From the NCBI GenBank assembly GCA_963798085.1, contig CAWCRS010000004.1:1-64000 (forward strand): DNA of 64,000 nt, read 5' to 3'. Made by a program: the position numbers. The stretch is from an uncultured Gemmatimonadales bacterium. Lineage in GTDB: Bacteria > Gemmatimonadota > Gemmatimonadetes > Longimicrobiales > RSA9. This document shows positions 27,001-54,000 of this stretch, one piece after another (the stretch's first letter is position 1; every line of letters starts with the position of its first letter).

Positions 27001-30000
27001 GCACGGTTGCTGGCGAAGTTCGCGCTGCTCGTCGTGTTCGCCGCCGTGTTGACTCGCTGTGCGGATCCGTCCGCGGATCCTTCCTCGCCCCGCTCCTCGA
27101 TTCCGCTGGCCTTTTCGCTGAGCTTCGCGGGCAATGCCGCATCCGCGTTCGACAAGGCCGATGCGCTCGACGTCCGCCTCATTGCGGGTGAACAGACTGT
27201 GCTGGACACGGTGGTCGCATTCGCGTCAGGCGGCGCCGATGTGCGGCTGCACCTGCGCGTGGACCCCGGGCTCGAGGGCCAGTCGCTGCTCCTGAACGTG
27301 GAACTGCGGCAGGGCAATGCGCCCCTCTTCACGGGCTCCGCCACTGTGGTGCCCACCACCGGAACGTCGGCGCCGGTGGACGTGGTCCTGAACCCGGTCG
27401 TGGCCCGGATCGTGGGGCCAGCGTCGTCGCCTGTAATCAGCAGCATTGGCGGTATCCGGAAACTGACCGCGGCCGCTGTGTTCGCCACCGGCGATACCGT
27501 GCCGGACATTCCCCTGATCTGGTCGCTCATCGACAGGAACATCGTGAGCCTGAATACGGACGGCACCGCGCAGGCGCTGACCGAAGGCTCCGCCCGTGTC
27601 GAGGCGAGGTACGGCAATCTGACGGCGACGATCACCGTCGTGGTGCGCATTCCCACGGTCCTGGTCGTGGTGAATCCCGACAAGGCGACGCTGGGTCTGC
27701 AGGGAACGCAGAAGTTCGCGGCTTCGGCCTTCGATGCGAACAACAACCTGCTGAAGAATCGCGTACCGGTCTGGGGATCCTCGAATGCCGCCGTTGTGTC
27801 GATCGATTCGACCGGCCTGGCGCGCGCGGTAGCGGTGGGAACGGCGAATATCAACGCCACGGTGGATGGAGTCACCGGTTCCGCTCAGGTGACCGTGACG
27901 AGTGTGCCGCCGCCGGCGGCACCCACGAGTCTCGCACAAACCGCGTCAGGCACCTCGATCACACTGCAGTGGACAGACGTGGCCACCAATGAGGCTTCCT
28001 ACGAGGTCTATCGCGGCACGCAGGGCGGCGCACGCGCGCGCATCGCCACACTGTCGCCTAACACCACGTCATACACGGACAACTCGCAGGGCGTGGATCA
28101 GGTGCTGGACTATTCGGTGGCCGCCTGCAATGCGGCCGGCTGCGTCGAGTCGGCGGTGATCACGGCGAGGACCGTGCCGAAACCGCCATTGAACCTGACG
28201 GTCGCGGCCCTCAACGTGGTCAACTTCTCGTTTACCCTGCAGTGGGTGGATGGCAGTGCCGCCGAGACGCGCTTCCAGATCGACACGAGTGATTCCACGG
28301 CCTCGACGATCCTCTGGAACAAGCGTGGCGATGTGGCCGCGAACGTGACGACCTATGACGGGAGCAGCTCACCCGCGGATCACGAGCGCCTGCGCGTTCT
28401 CGCCTGCAACGACGCCGGCTGCTCCGCACCCAGTAATATCGTGTATGTGAGCTTCCCGTTCTCCGCGCCCAACGCCGGCACGCTGCCTTCGCTCACGCGC
28501 ACGGAACTGCGCGGCTCGACCGACGGCTTCGGCCAGCCGCACACGATCTGGTTCACCTGGTCCGAGACGGACCCGACACTGTCGACCGACACCATGGCGA
28601 CGTTGCCCTTCGCGTCCTCATCGGCCGGCATTTGGACGGAGCCGCTGTACGATATTTCACCGGGGTACCCGGTCTATTATCGCATGAACGCGCAGAACAA
28701 CGTGGGCATCGCACACGGCGCGGTTCTGAGCTTCACAACGCCCGACCTATCCATCGGCGGGCCGTTCTCCGCCAATGTCTGCAACCGCGATCCCTCCGGC
28801 GTCGTGGGCCAGCCGCAGCCCTGTCCCTTCAATCCGGACAGCGTGGTGATCACCATCTATTCTGCCGGTCCCATCAACACGTACCAGAACCCCTTCACGT
28901 TCGTCTCGGTCGACGACGACACGTACGAGACCGCCCTCGGCCAGGCTGCCGTCGTCAGCGTGTTCGACGATCCGGGCTTCAACCAGCGCTTCTACACGTT
29001 CCGCTTCGTATGGCGCCTCACGCCGAGCGTGTCGCCGGGAAACCATACCATCGTGGCGCGCGGATACACAGGCAGCAGCGGTGGCAATGTCATTGCCGGC
29101 AGTGCCTCCATCACCGTGAACATCGACTGATCATGCGGGTGCACCCATCCATCCTCGCGCTGGCGCTGTGCGGCTGCGCCACGGCCGCGGCCGGGCCGCG
29201 CGCCGCCGATGTGCCCGCGCTGGAAGCGCGGCTGCGCGCCGATTCGACGTCGAGCGATGTGCGCGTGCGGCTGGCCGCCGCCTACCGCGAAGCCGGCCAC
29301 GCCGATCGCGCCATTGCGCTGCTCGAACCGGTGCTTCGCGCGCACCCGAACGATGCCGCCGCCGCGCTCTATCTCGGGCTCAGCTATGAAGACGGCAACC
29401 GCCTGGCCGATGCCCGGCGCGTGTACGCGGTGGCGCTGCGCAACACGCGCTCCCCGGCGTTGCGCGACCGCATCCAGTCGCGCGTCGTGCTGCTGTCGCG
29501 GCGCGAGCTGCGCGAAGCCTCGCGCCAGGCGCTGGCCCGGGAACGCGAGCTGTCGACGACGCCACCACCGCCCCGCACCGTGGGCGTGTTTCCGTTCTTC
29601 TTCGCGGCGCAGGACACGACACTGCGGCCGCTGTCGCGGGCCATGGCGGAGCTGCTGACGACGGACCTGTCGCAGACCGACCGGCTGCGCGTGGTCGAGC
29701 GCGCGCAGCTGCAGGCACTGCTGGACGAGATGGCACTGGCGCAGCGCGGTACCGTGGACCCGGCGACGGCCGCGCGCACGGGCCACCTGGTGGGCGCCGC
29801 CCACATTGTGCAGGGCCGCATTGATGGCTCGCCCGCCACGCTGTCCATGCAGGCGCTGGTGGTGGCCACGGCATCGCCCCGCGACACCGCGGGCGCGGCG
29901 ATCCGCGGCCAGGGCGGCGTCAATCGCCTGTTCGACATGGAGAAGAATATCGCGTTAGGCGTCTACACGCGGCTGGGCATCCAGCTGACCGATGCGGAGC

Positions 30001-51000: not shown

Positions 51001-54000
51001 AGCCGAAGCGGATGCGGTCGCCGTGGCGCAGTGCCTTGAGCGCGACACGCTCGCCATTGACGAACGTGCCGTTGCGGCTGCCGGCATCGCGCACGAACCA
51101 GCGCAAGCCATCGTAGCCCACGGTGGCGTGCTGCGCCGAGACATCCGTGTCGCGTTGTGGATCGAAGCGCAGGTCGACGCCGGCCTGGCGCCCGATCGTG
51201 ATCTCGCGCGTGATGGGAAACACCTCACCCGTACGCGCGCCGCGCAGGATACGCAGTTCGGCAGTCAAGGAGCGCGTCAGCTGCGGCTGGGGGCGTAGAC
51301 GCGCCGGCCGACCTCATCAGCTTCGCCTGGGTCGAACAGGCCGCCCCCATCGAAGCTGGCGACCACCACCGTGATGTTGTCGGGGCCGCCTCGCTGATTG
51401 GCCAGGTCGACGAGACCCTGGCAGAGCGCCGCGGGTTCCGGGTGAAGACCCGCCAGCTCGGCAATGTCCGGGCGTGAGATGACTTTCGACAGGCCATCGG
51501 AGCAGACGATCACCACGTCGCCGCGACGCAGCTCCTGGTAGGTCAGGTCCACATCCACGAACGGCGATGTGCCCAGCGCCTGCAGGATCATGTTGCGGTG
51601 GTCGCTCTTCTCCGCTTCCTCTTCGGTCATGGTGCCGGCATCGACCAGGTGCTGGATGTAGGACTGGTCGCGCGTGATCTGCCTGGCATTGCCGCGGCGC
51701 ACGAGGTAGGCGCGCGAATCGCCCACCTGCGCCACATAGAGGAACGCATCGAACACGCCTACCGCCGTGGCCGTGGTGCCCATGCCGCGGAAGCGCTCGT
51801 CCGCCAGGCTGGTCTCATGAATGCGCGTGTTGCTCGCCTCCACGGCTTCCTTGAGCCGGGAAGCGAACTGCTGCGGCGTATTGATGCGGTCGGTCAGCCA
51901 GAAGCGCTGCAGCTGATCGTGGATCGCCGTAACCGCAACGTTAGCGGCCACGCCGCCGGCCGCGGCGCCGCCCATGCCATCCGCCACCAGGCAGAGCGCG
52001 CCTTTCTCGCCCAGGTCGAACTCGCCGACCGCGGGTTCACCCGTGCCCAGGTCGGGCTCCAGCACGAGGCCGCCGTTCTCCACCGTCGTGAGATCGGAGA
52101 CCAGGAAGGAATCCTGGTTCTCGCGACGTCGCTGCCCGATGTCGGTCTTGCCCGCGACGCGCACCCGGATGCCCCGGTGATCGAAGTCGAAGCCGCTCAC
52201 CCGCGCAACGCCTTGCACAGGTCCTTCAACGTCAGATAACCCCGCGCGCCGGGTTTCAGCTGGAGTGCGCGGTCAACCCACAGGTCGCAATTGTCGGCAT
52301 CCCGCAGGTTCAGGTACGCGCTGGCCAGCATGTAGGCTGCTAATGCTTTGTTTGGGGCAGAGATTTCTGCGCCATCCCAGTATGCCAGGGCGGTGTCGAT
52401 GACCGCGTGGGCCCCGACTGATGACATTCTGTCCGTCGGCACATAGTCCAGCTGCCGGGGCAGAACTACCTTCGCATCCGCATCGGTCAGTACCGTGGCA
52501 CCCCCGCCGCCGCGATTCGGCGGCTGGCCGCCGCCCTGCGTCGCCTGACCGCTGTCACCGCGTGTGCCGGCGGCTGTCTGTCCGGTGTCGGTCTGCGTGG
52601 AAGCGCCGCCTCGGCGCTGCGGGTGGGCGCGCCCGCCGTCCCCGCCGGAGGCGGATTGCACGACCGTGGGCGAGTCGGCGTGCGCCACCGCATTGGGGTC
52701 GGGATTCTGCGTGCCGGCGCCGCCACGCGAGGGATTGGGGCTGAACAGCGAGAGCGCCGCCCAGGTGCCGCCCGCGATCACGACCACGGCGGCTGCTAAC
52801 ACCAGGGTCAGCGGGAAGCGCCGCTTTCCACCGCCTGCGCCGGTGCCCGCGGGAGGCGCGCCCTCGGGCGGCGGCGGACCCAGCCGGGTCTCGGGTGTCC
52901 ATTCGGCGGCGCCGCGCGGCGAGGGCGAATGGCGGGTAGCGCCGAGACGGCTGTTCGCAGCACCGCCCCCGCCTGCTGCGGTGGCCTGTGGCGCTGCCGG
53001 CGCGCCCGCCACCGCCTGCAGCAGCCGCGGATCCGCGAGATCGCGCGCCAGTGTCGCGGCATCGGGGTAGCGATCGTCGCGCTTGAGCGCGAGCGCGTGC
53101 GTGAGCACGGTCTGCAGCGGCGGCGGAAACGACTGGTCCGGCCTTACGTCCGCCAGTGTCAGCGGTGCGTGCGTGAGCCGCTCCACCATGATCGCCTGCG
53201 TCGATCCACCCTGGAACGGCAGCATGCCGGTGAGCATGCGGAACAGCACGATACCCAGCGAATAAATGTCACTGCGCCCGTCGAGGCGCTCGCCCATGAG
53301 CTGCTCGGGGCTCATGTATTCGGGTGTGCCCAGCACGTAACCCAGGCGGGTGACCTCGTCGCCACCCATGGCTTCCGGACCCTTGGCGATATCGAAGTCC
53401 ACGACCTTCGCGATGTCGCTGCCATCGCGACCCTGCTCGATCATGATGTTGGCGGGCTTCAGGTCGCGGTGCACGATGCCGGTGGCGTGTGCCGCCTCCA
53501 GCGCCAGCGCCACCTGGCGCGCGATGGCCACGGCTCTCGCCGGCGGCAGCGTGCCCTGCGCGCGCAGCAGGTCGCCGAGGGTTCCGCCCGTAATGAATTC
53601 GAGGGCGAGGAAGGGCGAGCCGTCGGCGGTCTCACCGTAGTCGTACAGCGTACAGACATTGGGATGGCGAATGGCGGAGAGATTGCGCGCGCCCCGATTG
53701 AAGCGCGCAATGGTCTCGGCGTCGAAGGCCAGCTGTCCGCGCAGCACCTTGATGGCATCGCGGCGGCCGATCTTCAGGTGCTCACCCAGGTAGACGGCGC
53801 CCATGGCGCCCTCACCCAGCTTCTGCACGATGCGGTAGCGCCCGGCCAGCGTGCTTCCGACCAGCGGATCTTCCGCCGGCGGAGCGCTGCCGGTGCCGCC
53901 GGACTCGCTCATGCAAACACTCCGTTATGGGGCTGCTCGCGCACGCTGGACTCGCCTGCGGGCGAGGCGACTACGCCGGAAACCCGGTCACCGGCAATTG

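Follow-up and report, generated by a model that had tools for sequence, protein, structure and literature searches.

The region at 26974-57968 of the window, a 64,000-nucleotide stretch from the genome of a soil Gemmatimonadota bacterium, is best explained as the regulatory end of a T6SS island, accompanied by an outer-membrane gene trio in two copies, which the T6SS islands of Gemmatimonadota have recruited. Two layers emerge from the comparison with related genomes. The first is an invariant block, constant in Longimicrobiales, of TssM, a PrcB-like lipoprotein, a kinase, a PP2C phosphatase, an FHA-protease, and a periplasmic TolB-N/CsgG-like protein; the second is a movable, multi-copy trio of an outer-membrane lipoprotein (TPR/TolB-N-like/TPR), a translationally coupled barrel of 16-18 strands, and a variable Ig-like or RCC1 lipoprotein. 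The company that the outer-membrane genes keep with the T6SS and the kinase in many related species suggests that they probably encode a previously undescribed, putative T6SS input device. They do not form the single module that an earlier note had described: in genomes whose lipoprotein and barrel lie elsewhere, the small periplasmic CsgG-like protein still accompanies the kinase block.

The constant kinase block

All genes named in the earlier note (lipoprotein, barrel, small CsgG-like gene, cytochromes, FHA-trypsin, PP2C, Pkinase, 165-aa lipoprotein, and TssM) were recovered at their positions (Table 1). The T6SS island extends from TssM to about 105 kb of the same contig (C4). TssM matches TIGR03348 with 345.6 bits, under the model's cut-off of 388 bits, and the phosphatase matches the NCBIfam model Stp1/IreP with 225.8 bits, slightly under its cut-off of 230 bits. 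The predicted topology of the kinase comprises the kinase domain, a transmembrane helix (364-392), and, on the periplasmic side, a linker rich in Gly and Gln followed by a helical domain of about 90 aa at the C-terminus, which can be aligned with T6SS-linked kinases from six other genomes. The 165-aa lipoprotein, previously considered a candidate TssJ, bears no TssJ signal; its nearest Atlas clusters carry PrcB_C (score 0.92), and in Longimicrobiales it is always located between TssM and the kinase.

Table 1. Positions of the features in the window and the evidence for each
Feature	Position	Strand	Evidence
Copy 1 variable lipoprotein, 718 aa, lipobox-like LTRC	26974-29130	+	Pfam Big_2 2.1e-07
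Copy 1 outer-membrane lipoprotein (TPR, TolB-N/CsgG-like domain, TPR)	29133-30408	+	Lipobox LALCGC; Pfam CsgG 6e-10 and TPRs
Copy 1 barrel, GTG start overlapping the upstream stop, own signal peptide MRRWQTHAALLACAGCTVAGRAAAQA	30405-31511	+	Homology, frame correction
Small TolB-N/CsgG-like and short TPR protein, 232 aa	31535-32233	+	Pfam CsgG 6.5e-20; SPase-I signal
RCC1-propeller lipoprotein, lipobox LAGC, second variable lipoprotein	32322-34139	+	Pfam RCC1-like 6.8e-50; N-terminus
Independent nine-gene unit (cytochromes)	34198-47080	-	Pfam; CxxCH counts; order shared with G017
Copy 2 barrel, 378 aa, signal peptide, 16-18 strands	47160-48296	-	AF2 model
Copy 2 outer-membrane lipoprotein, lipobox LLAGC	48305-49600	-	Pfam; AF2 pLDDT 86.8
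FHA-trypsin: FHA, transmembrane helix (129-151), coiled coil, periplasmic trypsin-like protease	49931-51268	-	Pfam FHA 1.3e-17, Trypsin_2 3.6e-18; hydropathy
PP2C phosphatase	51277-52218	-	Pfam PP2C_2 3.2e-14; NCBIfam Stp1/IreP 4.9e-67
Hanks-type Ser/Thr kinase	52197-53912	-	Pfam Pkinase 3.2e-44; topology
165-aa lipoprotein, PrcB_C-like, lipobox LLGAC	53988-54485	-	N-terminus; NCBIfam PrcB E 0.004; Atlas; synteny
TssM, first core T6SS gene of the island	54525-57968	-	Pfam IcmF domains; TIGR03348 E 6.5e-103

The constant sixth member of the block is the 232-aa protein. It had been described as a small LpoB/CsgG-like lipoprotein; the gene is there, but its signal is of the signal-peptidase-I type (..LTAAQQ) and lacks a lipobox, which places the product in the periplasm. 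The Pfam CsgG match covers only positions 3-101 of 210. Sequence comparison identifies the protein as a paralogue of the central domain of the outer-membrane lipoprotein (30% identity, E 2e-15), and it has 1794 relatives at E<=1e-10 (61-77% identity among the best 120). Its gene is convergent with that of FHA-trypsin in G001, G003, G276, G010, G036, and G030, and in the last three genomes this arrangement persists at the TssM end though the pair is located elsewhere. Only 8 bp separate the two genes in the sister genus, so the distance of 17.7 kb in this genome represents a local insertion.

The lipoprotein-barrel pair and its variable partners

As it reads in the window, the copy 1 lipoprotein runs through into the barrel (29133-31511, 792 aa), owing to one extra base at 30352. 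The sole difference in a public sequencing-run contig spanning 30058-30463 is the absence of this letter, and skipping it places the stop of the lipoprotein at 30406-30408. The orthologues in the sister genus (L019) are likewise two genes, which overlap in ATGA. The TPR-CsgG gene reported at 29133 is therefore present, but the fusion is an artefact of the insertion, and the region has the same arrangement of two coupled genes as the sister species. The copy 1 barrel shares 44% identity with that of copy 2 and groups in the barrel tree with the sister-genus copy that adjoins the T6SS (support 91/86). Instead of the three copies claimed previously, the genome holds four of the lipoprotein-barrel pair: besides the two in the window, the known third on C5, which has an Ig-like protein gene beside it, and a decayed, frameshifted fourth on C7 (about 845.7-848.4 kb).

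The copy 2 lipoprotein consists of TPRs (43-154), a TolB-N-like domain (165-298), further TPRs (305-399), and a conserved tail, and its stop lies 8 nt ahead of the barrel start. In structural comparison, the central domain matches the N-domain of TolB over 131 aa (Z 13.4, rmsd 2.7) and one chain of the LPHT flagellar ring from Vibrio over 124 aa (Z 12.4, rmsd 2.7). Profile searches of Pfam and NCBIfam assigned no family to the copy 2 barrel, whose model (pLDDT 90.5) has a conserved inward loop or helix at about 130-156. Its top structural neighbours, which we take to be 16-stranded barrels, are tied at Z 17-19: OprB (19.1), CdiB (19.0), a second match of the CdiB/FhaC type (17.4), general porins (about 17), and the barrels of PelB (18.2), BcsC (18.1), and PgaA (17.9). 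Because the polymer exporters score no differently from OprB, CdiB, and the general porins, these matches identify only the class of barrel.

The third member of the trio is a variable lipoprotein, in which a constant N-terminal domain is combined with swappable Ig-like, RCC1, or other beta-rich domains. In copy 1, it has a conserved N-terminal domain, a Big_2 domain, and an fn3-like domain, and ends 2 nt ahead of the next gene. The N-terminal 'AFDKAD' domain is common to at least 15 neighbours of the pair at other loci, and tblastn matches also adjoin the pair elsewhere. A barrel followed by an RCC1 lipoprotein was found at L013, L031, and L032.

Association with the T6SS

The genetic association of the trio with the T6SS is far beyond chance. 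With TssC as the marker, the barrel is present in all 11 TssC-positive genomes of a sample of 41 (this genome, G000, and 40 relatives), and its close form (clade C) occurs in 10 of the 11 versus 1 of the 30 TssC-negative genomes. The single exception (G008) is 80% complete, and its pair adjoins genes for DUF6931, kinase, PP2C, and FHA-trypsin. Across the phylum (301 genomes), the barrel occurs in 24/30 TssC-positive genomes, with no match in the other 6, and in 96/271 TssC-negative genomes; counts of this kind overstate the support because related genomes are not independent. Barrel and TssC share a contig, 3-50 kb apart, in 13 of the 24 genomes that have both (families f1, f2, f4, and f5). 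On a tree of 25 barrels, the T6SS-adjacent label requires 4 changes versus 7.5 with shuffled labels, and 2 of 500 shuffles were as low.

Synteny and co-occurrence thus uphold the genetic linkage of the outer-membrane set with kinase-PP2C-FHA and the T6SS, and extend it from the two other genera named before to at least five families of the phylum. At four loci from other families (G105, G195, G252, and G308), a CsgG-like lipoprotein, the barrel, and a kinase occur together; the small CsgG-like protein is present at three, and TssM adjoins the set in G105 and G308. Neither PP2C nor FHA-trypsin was found beside the outer-membrane genes at the loci sampled outside Longimicrobiales. Among 48 public loci, 15 have T6SS core genes, 16 have kinase, PP2C, or FHA-trypsin genes, and 24 have either; the small CsgG-like protein is present at 21, and the canonical block is contiguous at 10.

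The position of the trio relative to the T6SS genes varies. Several T6SS-positive genomes (e.g., G010) have every trio copy away from the kinase block or island, which is also true of the C5 and C7 copies in this genome. G030 possesses the T6SS, the kinase block, and the small protein, and its sole barrel is of a distant form and lies on another contig. G039 (96% completeness) speaks for a tie to the kinase genes: it has no match to TssC or TssK, yet the pair and the small protein are grouped there with genes for a kinase, an FHA protein, and PP2C. The neighbour of an island-adjacent trio is often ClpV, TssB, or PAAR and not the kinase (L060, L068, L075, L082, and L096), an arrangement that fits a T6SS accessory as much as a kinase sensor.

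Proposed role and alternative explanations

A functional tie of the set to the T6SS island is likely; its action as an input to the kinase is a tentative proposal, with a chance somewhat short of even. The best reading, held with similar reserve, is an envelope or contact sensor that would work like TagQ/TagR. Gene neighbourhood, co-occurrence, and predicted folds suggest that the lipoprotein and the barrel, possibly with the variable lipoprotein, would form a complex that reports outer-membrane damage or contact; the soluble 232-aa paralogue would relay the signal to the periplasmic domain of the kinase, and kinase, PP2C, and FHA protein would then gate T6SS assembly. TagQ/TagR-PpkA (PMC13713981) and TslA with OmpA (PMC13584744) provide precedents. 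The proposed counterpart would consist of parts unrelated to either system; the absence of homology between TagQ/TagR and the proteins of the set agrees with the earlier note.

The pair also has single-copy relatives in core-genome settings, beside YebC-RuvCAB, signal peptidase, or MCP genes, and barrel relatives occur in 120 of the 301 genomes. Kinase, PP2C, and FHA genes are absent nearby at all 12 pair loci sampled from genomes without a TssC match, so the ancestral job of the pair was not T6SS signalling, and the movable trio emerges as a derivative of a phylum-wide housekeeping pair. These loci would also suit a device for surface display or export, in which barrel and lipoprotein bring the large beta-rich lipoprotein encoded next to them to the cell surface, whether by inserting, exporting, or anchoring it, similar to Slam and surface lipoproteins or TpsB/TpsA; the T6SS-linked copies would then supply adhesins or target-recognition proteins without any kinase signalling. 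Such a role, although unlikely, is consistent with the almost invariable presence next to the pair of a lipobox lipoprotein that combines the shared N-terminal domain with Big_2, RCC1, CarboxypepD_reg, VHL, or PD40, with the CdiB/FhaC-type transporters among the tied structural neighbours, and with the proteins of 1300-1600 aa (beta-helix, cohesin/dockerin, or Big_2) that follow the housekeeping copies at L046, L048, and L049. However, no large secreted-protein gene lies beside the pair at 9 of the 12 housekeeping loci, and a Pfam scan detected no POTRA or DUF560 signature. Display would also leave unexplained the fixed place of the lipoprotein's soluble paralogue in the kinase block and the way in which the pair's close form follows the presence of the T6SS.

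The phylum-wide relatives, the varying position of the trio, and the copies outside the island could also indicate that the trio is a porin with its lipoprotein partners, serving the envelope in general, and that its paralogues accumulate in a variable island that happens to hold the T6SS. This is improbable, given that the trio repeatedly neighbours the T6SS genes, across at least five families and with two gene orders, that the close form is nearly confined to the T6SS-positive members of the 41 genomes, and that the chance of falling in the island is roughly 1% per gene (55-kb island, 6.2-Mb genome).

Equally doubtful, if not slightly more so, is a structural role in the membrane complex of the T6SS, in which the lipoprotein (perhaps as a TolB-N-like ring) and the barrel would anchor or open the outer membrane for TssM and so replace the absent TssJ. 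TssJ (PF12790) was matched in none of five T6SS-positive genomes from four families, the trio abuts ClpV, TssB, TssK, or PAAR at several loci, and the match to the flagellar ring chain would suit such a part. Against this stand the multiple copies of the trio, often distant from the island, its association with kinase genes in G039, the absence of a close copy from G030 and six other TssC-positive genomes, and the conserved small lipoprotein that already adjoins TssM in Longimicrobiales.

The cytochrome unit

It had further been proposed that one copy has taken in three multihaem cytochromes, through which the envelope redox state would gate T6SS firing. The cytochromes (5, 8, and 10 CxxCH motifs) belong instead to a self-contained unit outside the outer-membrane module, whose genes encode a flavoprotein-FHA-ferredoxin, a double-FHA protein, the 10-haem cytochrome, a membrane protein, a cNMP-binding 4Fe-4S protein, the 8-haem cytochrome, a 534-aa protein with a signal peptide, and the 5-haem cytochrome, which is split into two frames in the window. 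The unit follows the copy 2 barrel on the same strand after a gap of 80 nt, and its three FHA domains could read the neighbouring kinase. However, all nine genes recur in identical order (28-58% identity) on contig C103 of G017, a genome that matches neither TssC nor TssK and carries its only barrel on another contig; C103 ends 363 bp beyond the last cytochrome gene, so that the neighbour on that side lies outside it. Since the cassette recurs in a relative without a T6SS marker, the redox link is unsupported, and with the 8-haem protein in just 2 of the 41 genomes (including this one) and the local insertion of 17.7 kb, it is very improbable.

An improbable alternative: an exopolysaccharide export pore

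Least credible is an alternative raised in the earlier note, a pore for synthase-dependent exopolysaccharide export, of the type of PelB/PelC, AlgK/AlgE, BcsC, or PgaA, whose position next to the T6SS would be incidental. A TPR protein with a barrel is a suitable architecture and PelB, BcsC, and PgaA are among the tied structural neighbours, but so are OprB, CdiB, and general porins, the 353 neighbour proteins from about 40 loci include no conserved synthase, c-di-GMP receptor, or polysaccharide-modifying gene, and no synthase partner lies within about 10 kb of the pair; two Glyco_trans_1_2 genes about 4-6 kb downstream at L017 are the only glycosyltransferases seen. PelB and BcsC have long TPR arrays, whereas the TolB-N-like domain of the lipoprotein is flanked by only a few TPRs.

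Gene content of the locus

GC-frame analysis together with Pfam and NCBIfam scans recovered the gene list of the earlier note (see table). Judged by the public names of close relatives, the organism belongs to Longimicrobiaceae/Longimicrobiales (Gemmatimonadota). The five plus-strand genes at 26974-34139 are closely spaced and include copy 1 of a gene pair, which encodes an outer-membrane lipoprotein (TPR, TolB-N/CsgG-like, TPR) and a barrel; the pair and an adjacent variable lipoprotein are referred to as the trio. The small protein belongs, with TssM, the 165-aa lipoprotein, the Hanks kinase, PP2C and the FHA-trypsin protein, to what is called the kinase block. 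The T6SS island continues past the right edge of the window, up to about contig position 105 kb, and encodes TssB, TssC, Hcp, TagJ, TssA, TssE, TssF, TssG and ClpV, four VgrG genes with DUF2169, Rhs, DUF6931 and PAAR genes, and a further kinase. This second Hanks kinase (C4:102908-104890 of this genome, G000; L105 18908 onwards) directly follows VgrG-DUF6931-PAAR at the far island end; in other genomes (L013, L014, L063), the pair adjoins DUF6931/PAAR.

Features of the module, the kinase block and the genes between them on contig CAWCRS010000004.1
Feature	Position	Strand	Basis
Ig-like lipoprotein, 718 aa	26974-29130	+	GC-frame, Pfam/NCBIfam
TPR + CsgG-like lipoprotein (copy 1)	starts 29133	+	GC-frame, Pfam/NCBIfam
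Barrel (copy 1)	ends 31511	+	GC-frame, Pfam/NCBIfam
CsgG/LpoB-like protein (small protein), 232 aa	31535-32233	+	GC-frame, Pfam/NCBIfam
RCC1-propeller lipoprotein	32322-34139	+	GC-frame, Pfam/NCBIfam
Nine genes: cytochromes with 5, 8 and 10 CxxCH motifs, FHA, Fe-S/flavin domains	34198-47080	-	
Pfam-less barrel, 378 aa (copy 2)	47160-48296	-	
Second TPR + CsgG-like lipoprotein (copy 2)	48305-49600	-	
FHA-TM-trypsin protein	49931-51268	-	FHA 1.3e-17
PP2C	51277-52218	-	PP2C_2 3.2e-14
Hanks kinase	52197-53912	-	Pkinase 3.2e-44
165-aa lipoprotein	53988-54485	-	
TssM	54525-57968	-	

Frameshifts and copy number

The 792-aa frame that joins lipoprotein and barrel, taken as one gene in the earlier note, is no true fusion, as the sister genus (G001) has two separate genes overlapping in ATGA. 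In the window, the conserved lipoprotein tail breaks after ..VLGTEGI and then runs into the barrel's own signal peptide. The sole difference in a contig from a public soil-metagenome run that spans 30058-30463 is one letter missing at 30352; the run has a depth of about 3 and may derive from the genome's own sample. A further run (X3) yielded no sequence on the stretch, which does not prove absence. Once base 30352 is skipped, the lipoprotein frame stops at 30406-30408 and overlaps a GTG start (30405). As the fusion stems from a one-base insertion, the fused protein is useless as interaction evidence of the Rosetta-stone kind.

Several other suspected frameshifts (in the 5-haem cytochrome, in the pair copy on contig C7 and in TssK-TssL) suggest that the assembly is indel-prone. 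The 5-haem cytochrome gene (45731-47080, minus strand) and an overlapping ORF of 204 aa (45250-45864) correspond to a single ORF of 669 aa in G017, so that a frame change, probably a further assembly indel, divides the gene here. A 706-aa ORF (57980-60100, minus strand) joins a TssK-like N-half (VasE positions 1-295) to TssL/DotU; this fusion may again be a frameshift, because a relative, G010, encodes the two parts in distinct genes whose frames differ and which lie 24 nt apart.

That the module is present in several copies was confirmed, although its reported triplication falls short of the four copies of the pair counted here (two in the window, one on C5 and one on C7). The copy on C7 (approximately 845.7-848.4 kb; L034 approximately 9.7-12.4 kb) is decayed, with at least two frame changes, and lies 3-5 kb from IS21-type transposase genes (Mu-transposase C-terminal domain, IstB).

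Association of the module with T6SS islands

Among 41 genomes (this genome and 40 relatives), the barrel is present in 18 and TssC in 11, and all 11 TssC-positive genomes possess the barrel; these counts and the barrel tree include rows from two genomes flagged as unpublished (G015, G016), and a missing match in an incomplete genome does not equate to absence. The tree of 25 barrels comprises three deep clades, and every T6SS-adjacent copy falls within clade C (18 rows). The label "T6SS-adjacent" changes 4 times on this tree, compared with 7.5 times when labels are shuffled, and 2 of 500 shuffles gave a value as low. Clade C barrels occur in 10 of the 11 TssC-positive genomes but in just 1 of the 30 TssC-negative genomes; the clade C copy of the latter (G008, 80% complete) adjoins DUF6931, kinase, PP2C and FHA-trypsin genes. 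In a sample of 301 genomes of the phylum, the barrel profile matches 120 and TssC matches 30, with the barrel present in 24 of the 30 TssC-positive and 96 of the 271 TssC-negative genomes. Barrel and TssC are located on the same contig, 3-50 kb apart, in 13 genomes of four families.

The existence of a kinase-phosphatase-FHA-linked gene set beyond this genome, also proposed in the earlier note, is supported by synteny in relatives, in loci of other families and among 48 public loci. CsgG-like lipoprotein, barrel and kinase genes lie together in G105, G195, G252 and G308; the small protein is present in three of these four loci, and TssM adjoins the set in G105 and G308. G276 (family f2) has the full block, and the Hanks kinase, PP2C and FHA protein also form a block in G001, G003, G276, G010, G036 and G030; PP2C and FHA-trypsin were found beside the module only in Longimicrobiales loci. 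The gene calls in these neighbour loci stem from a simple GC-frame heuristic, with some genes missed or mis-stranded, and tblastn matches to "Pkinase" can be any Hanks kinase. The public loci were found with a single conserved barrel motif, which restricts them to close Gemmatimonadota relatives and makes them silent on other phyla, and 9 of the 48 are apparently the same contigs as loci already compared. T6SS core genes are present in 15 of them, a kinase, PP2C or FHA-trypsin in 16, and either in 24; the small protein is found in 21, and a contiguous block, in one of two orders, in 10.

The composition of the set differs among relatives. In G010, G036 and G030, one island end carries TssM, the 165-aa lipoprotein, the kinase, (PP2C) and FHA-trypsin, with the small protein in convergent orientation. 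No lipoprotein-barrel pair lies beside this end in the three genomes; the pair is located at the opposite island end or elsewhere. This assigns the small protein to the kinase block and leaves the trio as the movable part. In genomes without a TssC match, the pair is single-copy, its two genes are adjacent in 12 of 12 loci, and it resides in core contexts (YebC-RuvCAB, signal peptidase, MFS, MCP). None of these 12 loci has kinase, PP2C or FHA genes near this housekeeping pair, and in three of them it is followed by huge beta-helix, cohesin or Big_2 proteins. G039, which is 96% complete and matches neither TssC nor TssK, has the pair and the small protein next to genes for a caspase-like protease, a kinase, an FHA protein and a PP2C.

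Gene neighbourhood, co-occurrence and predicted structures, in genomes that are related and non-independent, best support the view that the trio and the small protein probably serve the Gemmatimonadota T6SS island as accessory parts. Through conserved gene order and through co-occurrence, this non-homologous envelope set is tied to T6SS and kinase across a whole, little-studied phylum, and a mere vicinity with no functional tie is quite improbable. The analysis also defines a Pfam-less lipoprotein-barrel pair that is present in 120 of 301 sampled Gemmatimonadota genomes.

The small protein adjoins the pair also in L026 (G039:C37, 5406-7181) and in L052 (G313; no TssC match). In G039, a 591-aa caspase-domain (Peptidase_C14) protein adjoins the small protein where Longimicrobiaceae have the FHA-trypsin protein, so a protease is its neighbour in both settings.

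Predicted structures and domains

The model of the barrel (pLDDT 90.5) has 16-18 strands and an inward loop or helix after the fifth strand that is strongly conserved (alignment A1); the Pfam scan found no family. A structure search against representatives gave a flat top of OprB (Z 19.1), CdiB (19.0), PelB (18.2), BcsC (18.1), PgaA (17.9) and porins (about 17), all of which we take to be 16-stranded barrels; fold searches with the model place the protein in this class only, not in a family. The lipoprotein model (pLDDT 86.8) consists of TPR (43-154), an alpha/beta domain (165-298), a second TPR (305-399) and a disordered but conserved tail. Residues 166-317 of the model superpose on the N-domain of TolB (Z 13.4, rmsd 2.7 Å over 131 residues) and are thus predicted to adopt its fold; Foldseek aligned most TolB entries with rmsd 3.2-4.2 over 134-147 columns. 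The same domain matched a chain of the Vibrio LPHT flagellar ring (Z 12.4) and, with Foldseek, the lipoprotein GNA1162; neither PelC nor AlgK is among the 50 matches listed. The third genes beside the pair encode lipoproteins that share an N-terminal domain and differ in their Big_2, RCC1, CarboxypepD_reg, VHL or PD40 parts.

The small CsgG-like protein, considered a lipoprotein in the earlier note, has a signal of the signal-peptidase-I type that is not followed by a cysteine, both here and in the consensus of 37 relatives, and is therefore periplasmic. Its sequence is paralogous to the lipoprotein's central domain (30% identity, E 2e-15) and has a short TPR-like end; the protein matches the N-half of Pfam CsgG (positions 3-101 of 210) and, judged by sequence, should have an alpha/beta fold of the TolB-N type. 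Its conservation far exceeds that of the other parts, and identities range over 61-77% among the best 120 of its 1794 relatives. In the kinase, a single TM helix (364-392) is followed by a Gly/Gln-rich linker in the periplasm and by a C-terminal helical domain of roughly 90 aa, which aligns with T6SS-linked kinases of six other genomes; a homologue search with the periplasmic region alone returned only the query. A complex prediction for residues 21-232 of the small protein (36-row alignment) and 478-571 of the kinase (7 rows) scored 0.18 and 0.09, below the mark of 0.32; such scores speak neither for nor against a contact.

In the FHA protein, a TM helix and a coiled coil lead to a periplasmic trypsin-like domain. 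The 165-aa lipoprotein had been put forward as a candidate TssJ; it carries no TssJ signal, the Pfam scan names no family, and PF12790 (T6SS-SciN, TssJ) is matched in none of five T6SS-positive genomes, so this assignment has no support from sequence. Its nearest Atlas clusters carry PrcB_C, which is a lead only.

The cytochromes form a probably independent unit

The multihaem cytochromes, which the earlier note regarded as captured by the module, belong to a nine-gene cassette that recurs elsewhere. The cassette encodes a pyridine-nucleotide-disulfide-oxidoreductase-FHA-FHA-2Fe2S protein, a double-FHA protein, three multihaem cytochromes, a cNMP-binding 4Fe-4S protein, a polytopic membrane protein and a 534-aa signal-peptide protein without family, possibly an outer-membrane partner; its make-up suggests an extracytoplasmic electron-transfer unit under phospho-threonine control. 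Of the 40 relatives, only G017 has a homologue of the 8-haem protein, and there the whole unit is found in the same order with 28-58% identity (L043, G017:C103, 5860-18481). G017 has no match to TssC or TssK, and its sole barrel copy is located on a different contig; the contig with the nine genes stops 363 bp past the last cytochrome gene, so that the far neighbour lies beyond its end. In the sister genus, the small protein and the FHA-trypsin protein are 8 bp apart, whereas 17.7 kb separate them here, which therefore represent a local insertion composed of the RCC1 lipoprotein, the nine-gene unit and copy 2 of the pair. In our reading, the cytochrome genes are a separate redox cassette, regulated through FHA, that came to lie beside the module, and a coupling of redox state to the T6SS via the cytochromes is highly improbable.

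Comparison with known systems and possible function

To our knowledge, the decision when and where a T6SS fires is understood in a few proteobacteria only (TagQRST-PpkA, TslA-OmpA), and we know of no described T6SS accessory set that has a dedicated barrel and a diversifying lipoprotein. As in TagQ/TagR(/TagST)-PpkA-PppA-Fha1, an outer-membrane lipoprotein and a soluble periplasmic protein are encoded here with a membrane Hanks kinase, a PP2C and an FHA protein within the T6SS cluster, adjoining TssM. The differences are considerable. The parts (TPR and TolB-N/CsgG-like) lack any sequence or domain relation to their counterparts, and the soluble protein is paralogous to the lipoprotein. The set also has a variable lipoprotein and a barrel of its own, and TagS/TagT-like ABC genes are missing from the block. 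The FHA protein sits in the membrane and bears a periplasmic protease, and the kinase's periplasmic part is helical and comprises about 90 aa. A sulfatase-modifying-factor-like domain is part of TagR; Pfam and NCBIfam scans across all genes in 26974-63704 found no TagR/TagQ, TagS/TagT, ABC or FtsX proteins in the block, and the sole MacB-like genes are located at 476-3289. The earlier view of a TagQRST counterpart built from unrelated parts holds, by the Pfam and NCBIfam scans, for the unrelatedness, except for the kinase, PP2C and FHA domains; as a counterpart, the set resembles TagQ/TagR-PpkA-PppA-Fha1, like TslA-OmpA, by analogy in logic only. In the Pseudomonas aeruginosa H1-T6SS, membrane damage is proposed to make a complex of lipoprotein and periplasmic protein dimerise the kinase (PMC13713981; PMC13584744), and TslA (AsaA)/TagM1 with OmpA sets T6SS assembly at cell-cell contacts in Acinetobacter and Burkholderia, again an outer-membrane lipoprotein working with an outer-membrane barrel protein (PMC13584744). 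By contrast, TslA works via TagX/TssM rather than a kinase, and OmpA is a general protein not encoded with TslA; Pfam and NCBIfam scans name no TslA-type family among the proteins here.

A model in which the outer-membrane proteins sense a signal and pass it to the kinase is tentative, at a little less than an even chance. It would account for the fixed association of small protein and kinase, for the paralogy of small protein and lipoprotein, for the conserved periplasmic domain of the kinase, and for G039, where the set stays with a kinase despite the lack of a T6SS. It would leave unexplained the housekeeping ancestry of the pair, its frequent siting beside structural genes, and what the barrel and the variable lipoprotein contribute. 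In enterobacteria, RcsF threaded through OmpA/OmpC/OmpF serves Rcs envelope stress sensing and is likewise a lipoprotein with a porin-type barrel that signals outer-membrane damage to an inner-membrane partner; its proteins are unrelated, and Rcs signals through a phosphorelay instead of a Hanks kinase. Should the sensing role prove right, the threonine-phosphorylation switch would have acquired outer-membrane input more than once in evolution, and the set would offer tractable candidates for what is sensed.

The main competitor, rather unlikely in our estimate, is a device for display or export of the variable lipoprotein, which could itself serve target recognition. Display and sensing can be combined into a modular cell-surface signalling device for the T6SS that would have been recruited from the housekeeping pair, a reading that is improbable in its entirety. 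A variable lipoprotein "antenna", with an Ig-like N-domain and swappable RCC1, Big_2 or other heads, would be displayed through or on the dedicated barrel; the TPR/TolB-N lipoprotein beneath would sense its state and signal to its soluble paralogue, which would contact the Hanks kinase at its periplasmic domain. A proteolytic reset would possibly come from the FHA-anchored protease in the periplasm together with the PrcB-like lipoprotein. Several paralogous antennae per genome would allow one T6SS to answer different neighbours or insults, and the phylum-wide housekeeping pair would be the ancestor of the recruited sensor.

A structural role in the outer membrane, with which the siting beside structural genes would agree, is very improbable. 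A polysaccharide pore is extremely unlikely: PelB/PelC, AlgK/AlgE, BcsC and PgaA also combine a TPR protein with a barrel, and the PelB, BcsC and PgaA barrels reach Z 17.9-18.2, but these scores tie with OprB, CdiB (TpsB transporters) and porins, the TPR arrays here are short and interrupted by the TolB-N-like domain, and no synthase partner was found at any locus examined. Among 353 neighbour proteins from about 40 loci, none is a polysaccharide synthase or modifying enzyme, save two Glyco_trans_1_2 genes 4-6 kb from the pair in L017.

Further candidates were rejected. The predicted fold of the lipoprotein's central domain is shared by the TolB N-domain, LpoB, the N-half of CsgG and FlgT-type Vibrio outer-ring proteins; unlike TolB, the proteins here have no beta-propeller. 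Only positions 3-101 (small protein) or 35-99 (lipoproteins) of the 210 in the CsgG profile are matched, so the channel-forming half is absent, which dismisses a curli secretion channel. LpoB, the activator of PBP1B, scores 18.7-23.8 bits (TIGR02722; cut-off 110.55), with partial matches only to Pfam LpoB. Slam, a DUF560 barrel with N-terminal TPR in one chain, does not fit either, since the barrel has no Pfam family and TPR and barrel are separate genes once the 30352 frameshift is removed. An analogy to TssR of Bacteroidota as TPR plus barrel was dropped, as the protein appears in passages of PMC10781749 as a lipoprotein with a vWA-like domain, and these passages use neither "barrel" nor "TPR". 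The words barrel, CsgG, TolB, TPR and Gemmatimon are absent from a 2026 review of T6SS accessory factors (PMC13584744); outside subscription-only literature, none of the 12 papers listed, of 34 on Gemmatimonadetes and type VI secretion, deals with accessory genes as judged by title and abstract start, and none was found that links PelC, PelB, TolB and lipoprotein.

Other genes of the window

A proline-rich protein of 700 aa (60237-62339, plus strand) is encoded within the T6SS cluster and has no Pfam or NCBIfam family. Its N-terminal part of about 95 aa looks folded, its C-terminal part carries a TM anchor (639-672), and the motif P-G-[DE]-F-T-x-[MLI]-[FV] is repeated seven times. The N-terminal part is kept in the same place, between two TssK genes, in G010 (69%) and G036 (54%), and residues 194-674 have a weak match in the same place in G030 (26%).

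Three BNR/sialidase-like repeat proteins are encoded at 9841-13851 and 20296-21648 (plus strand), upstream of a TonB-dependent receptor gene and 15-20 kb to the left of the module. One of them weakly matches Tli3, a T6SS immunity family (2.9e-06; barely over the 27-bit cut-off).
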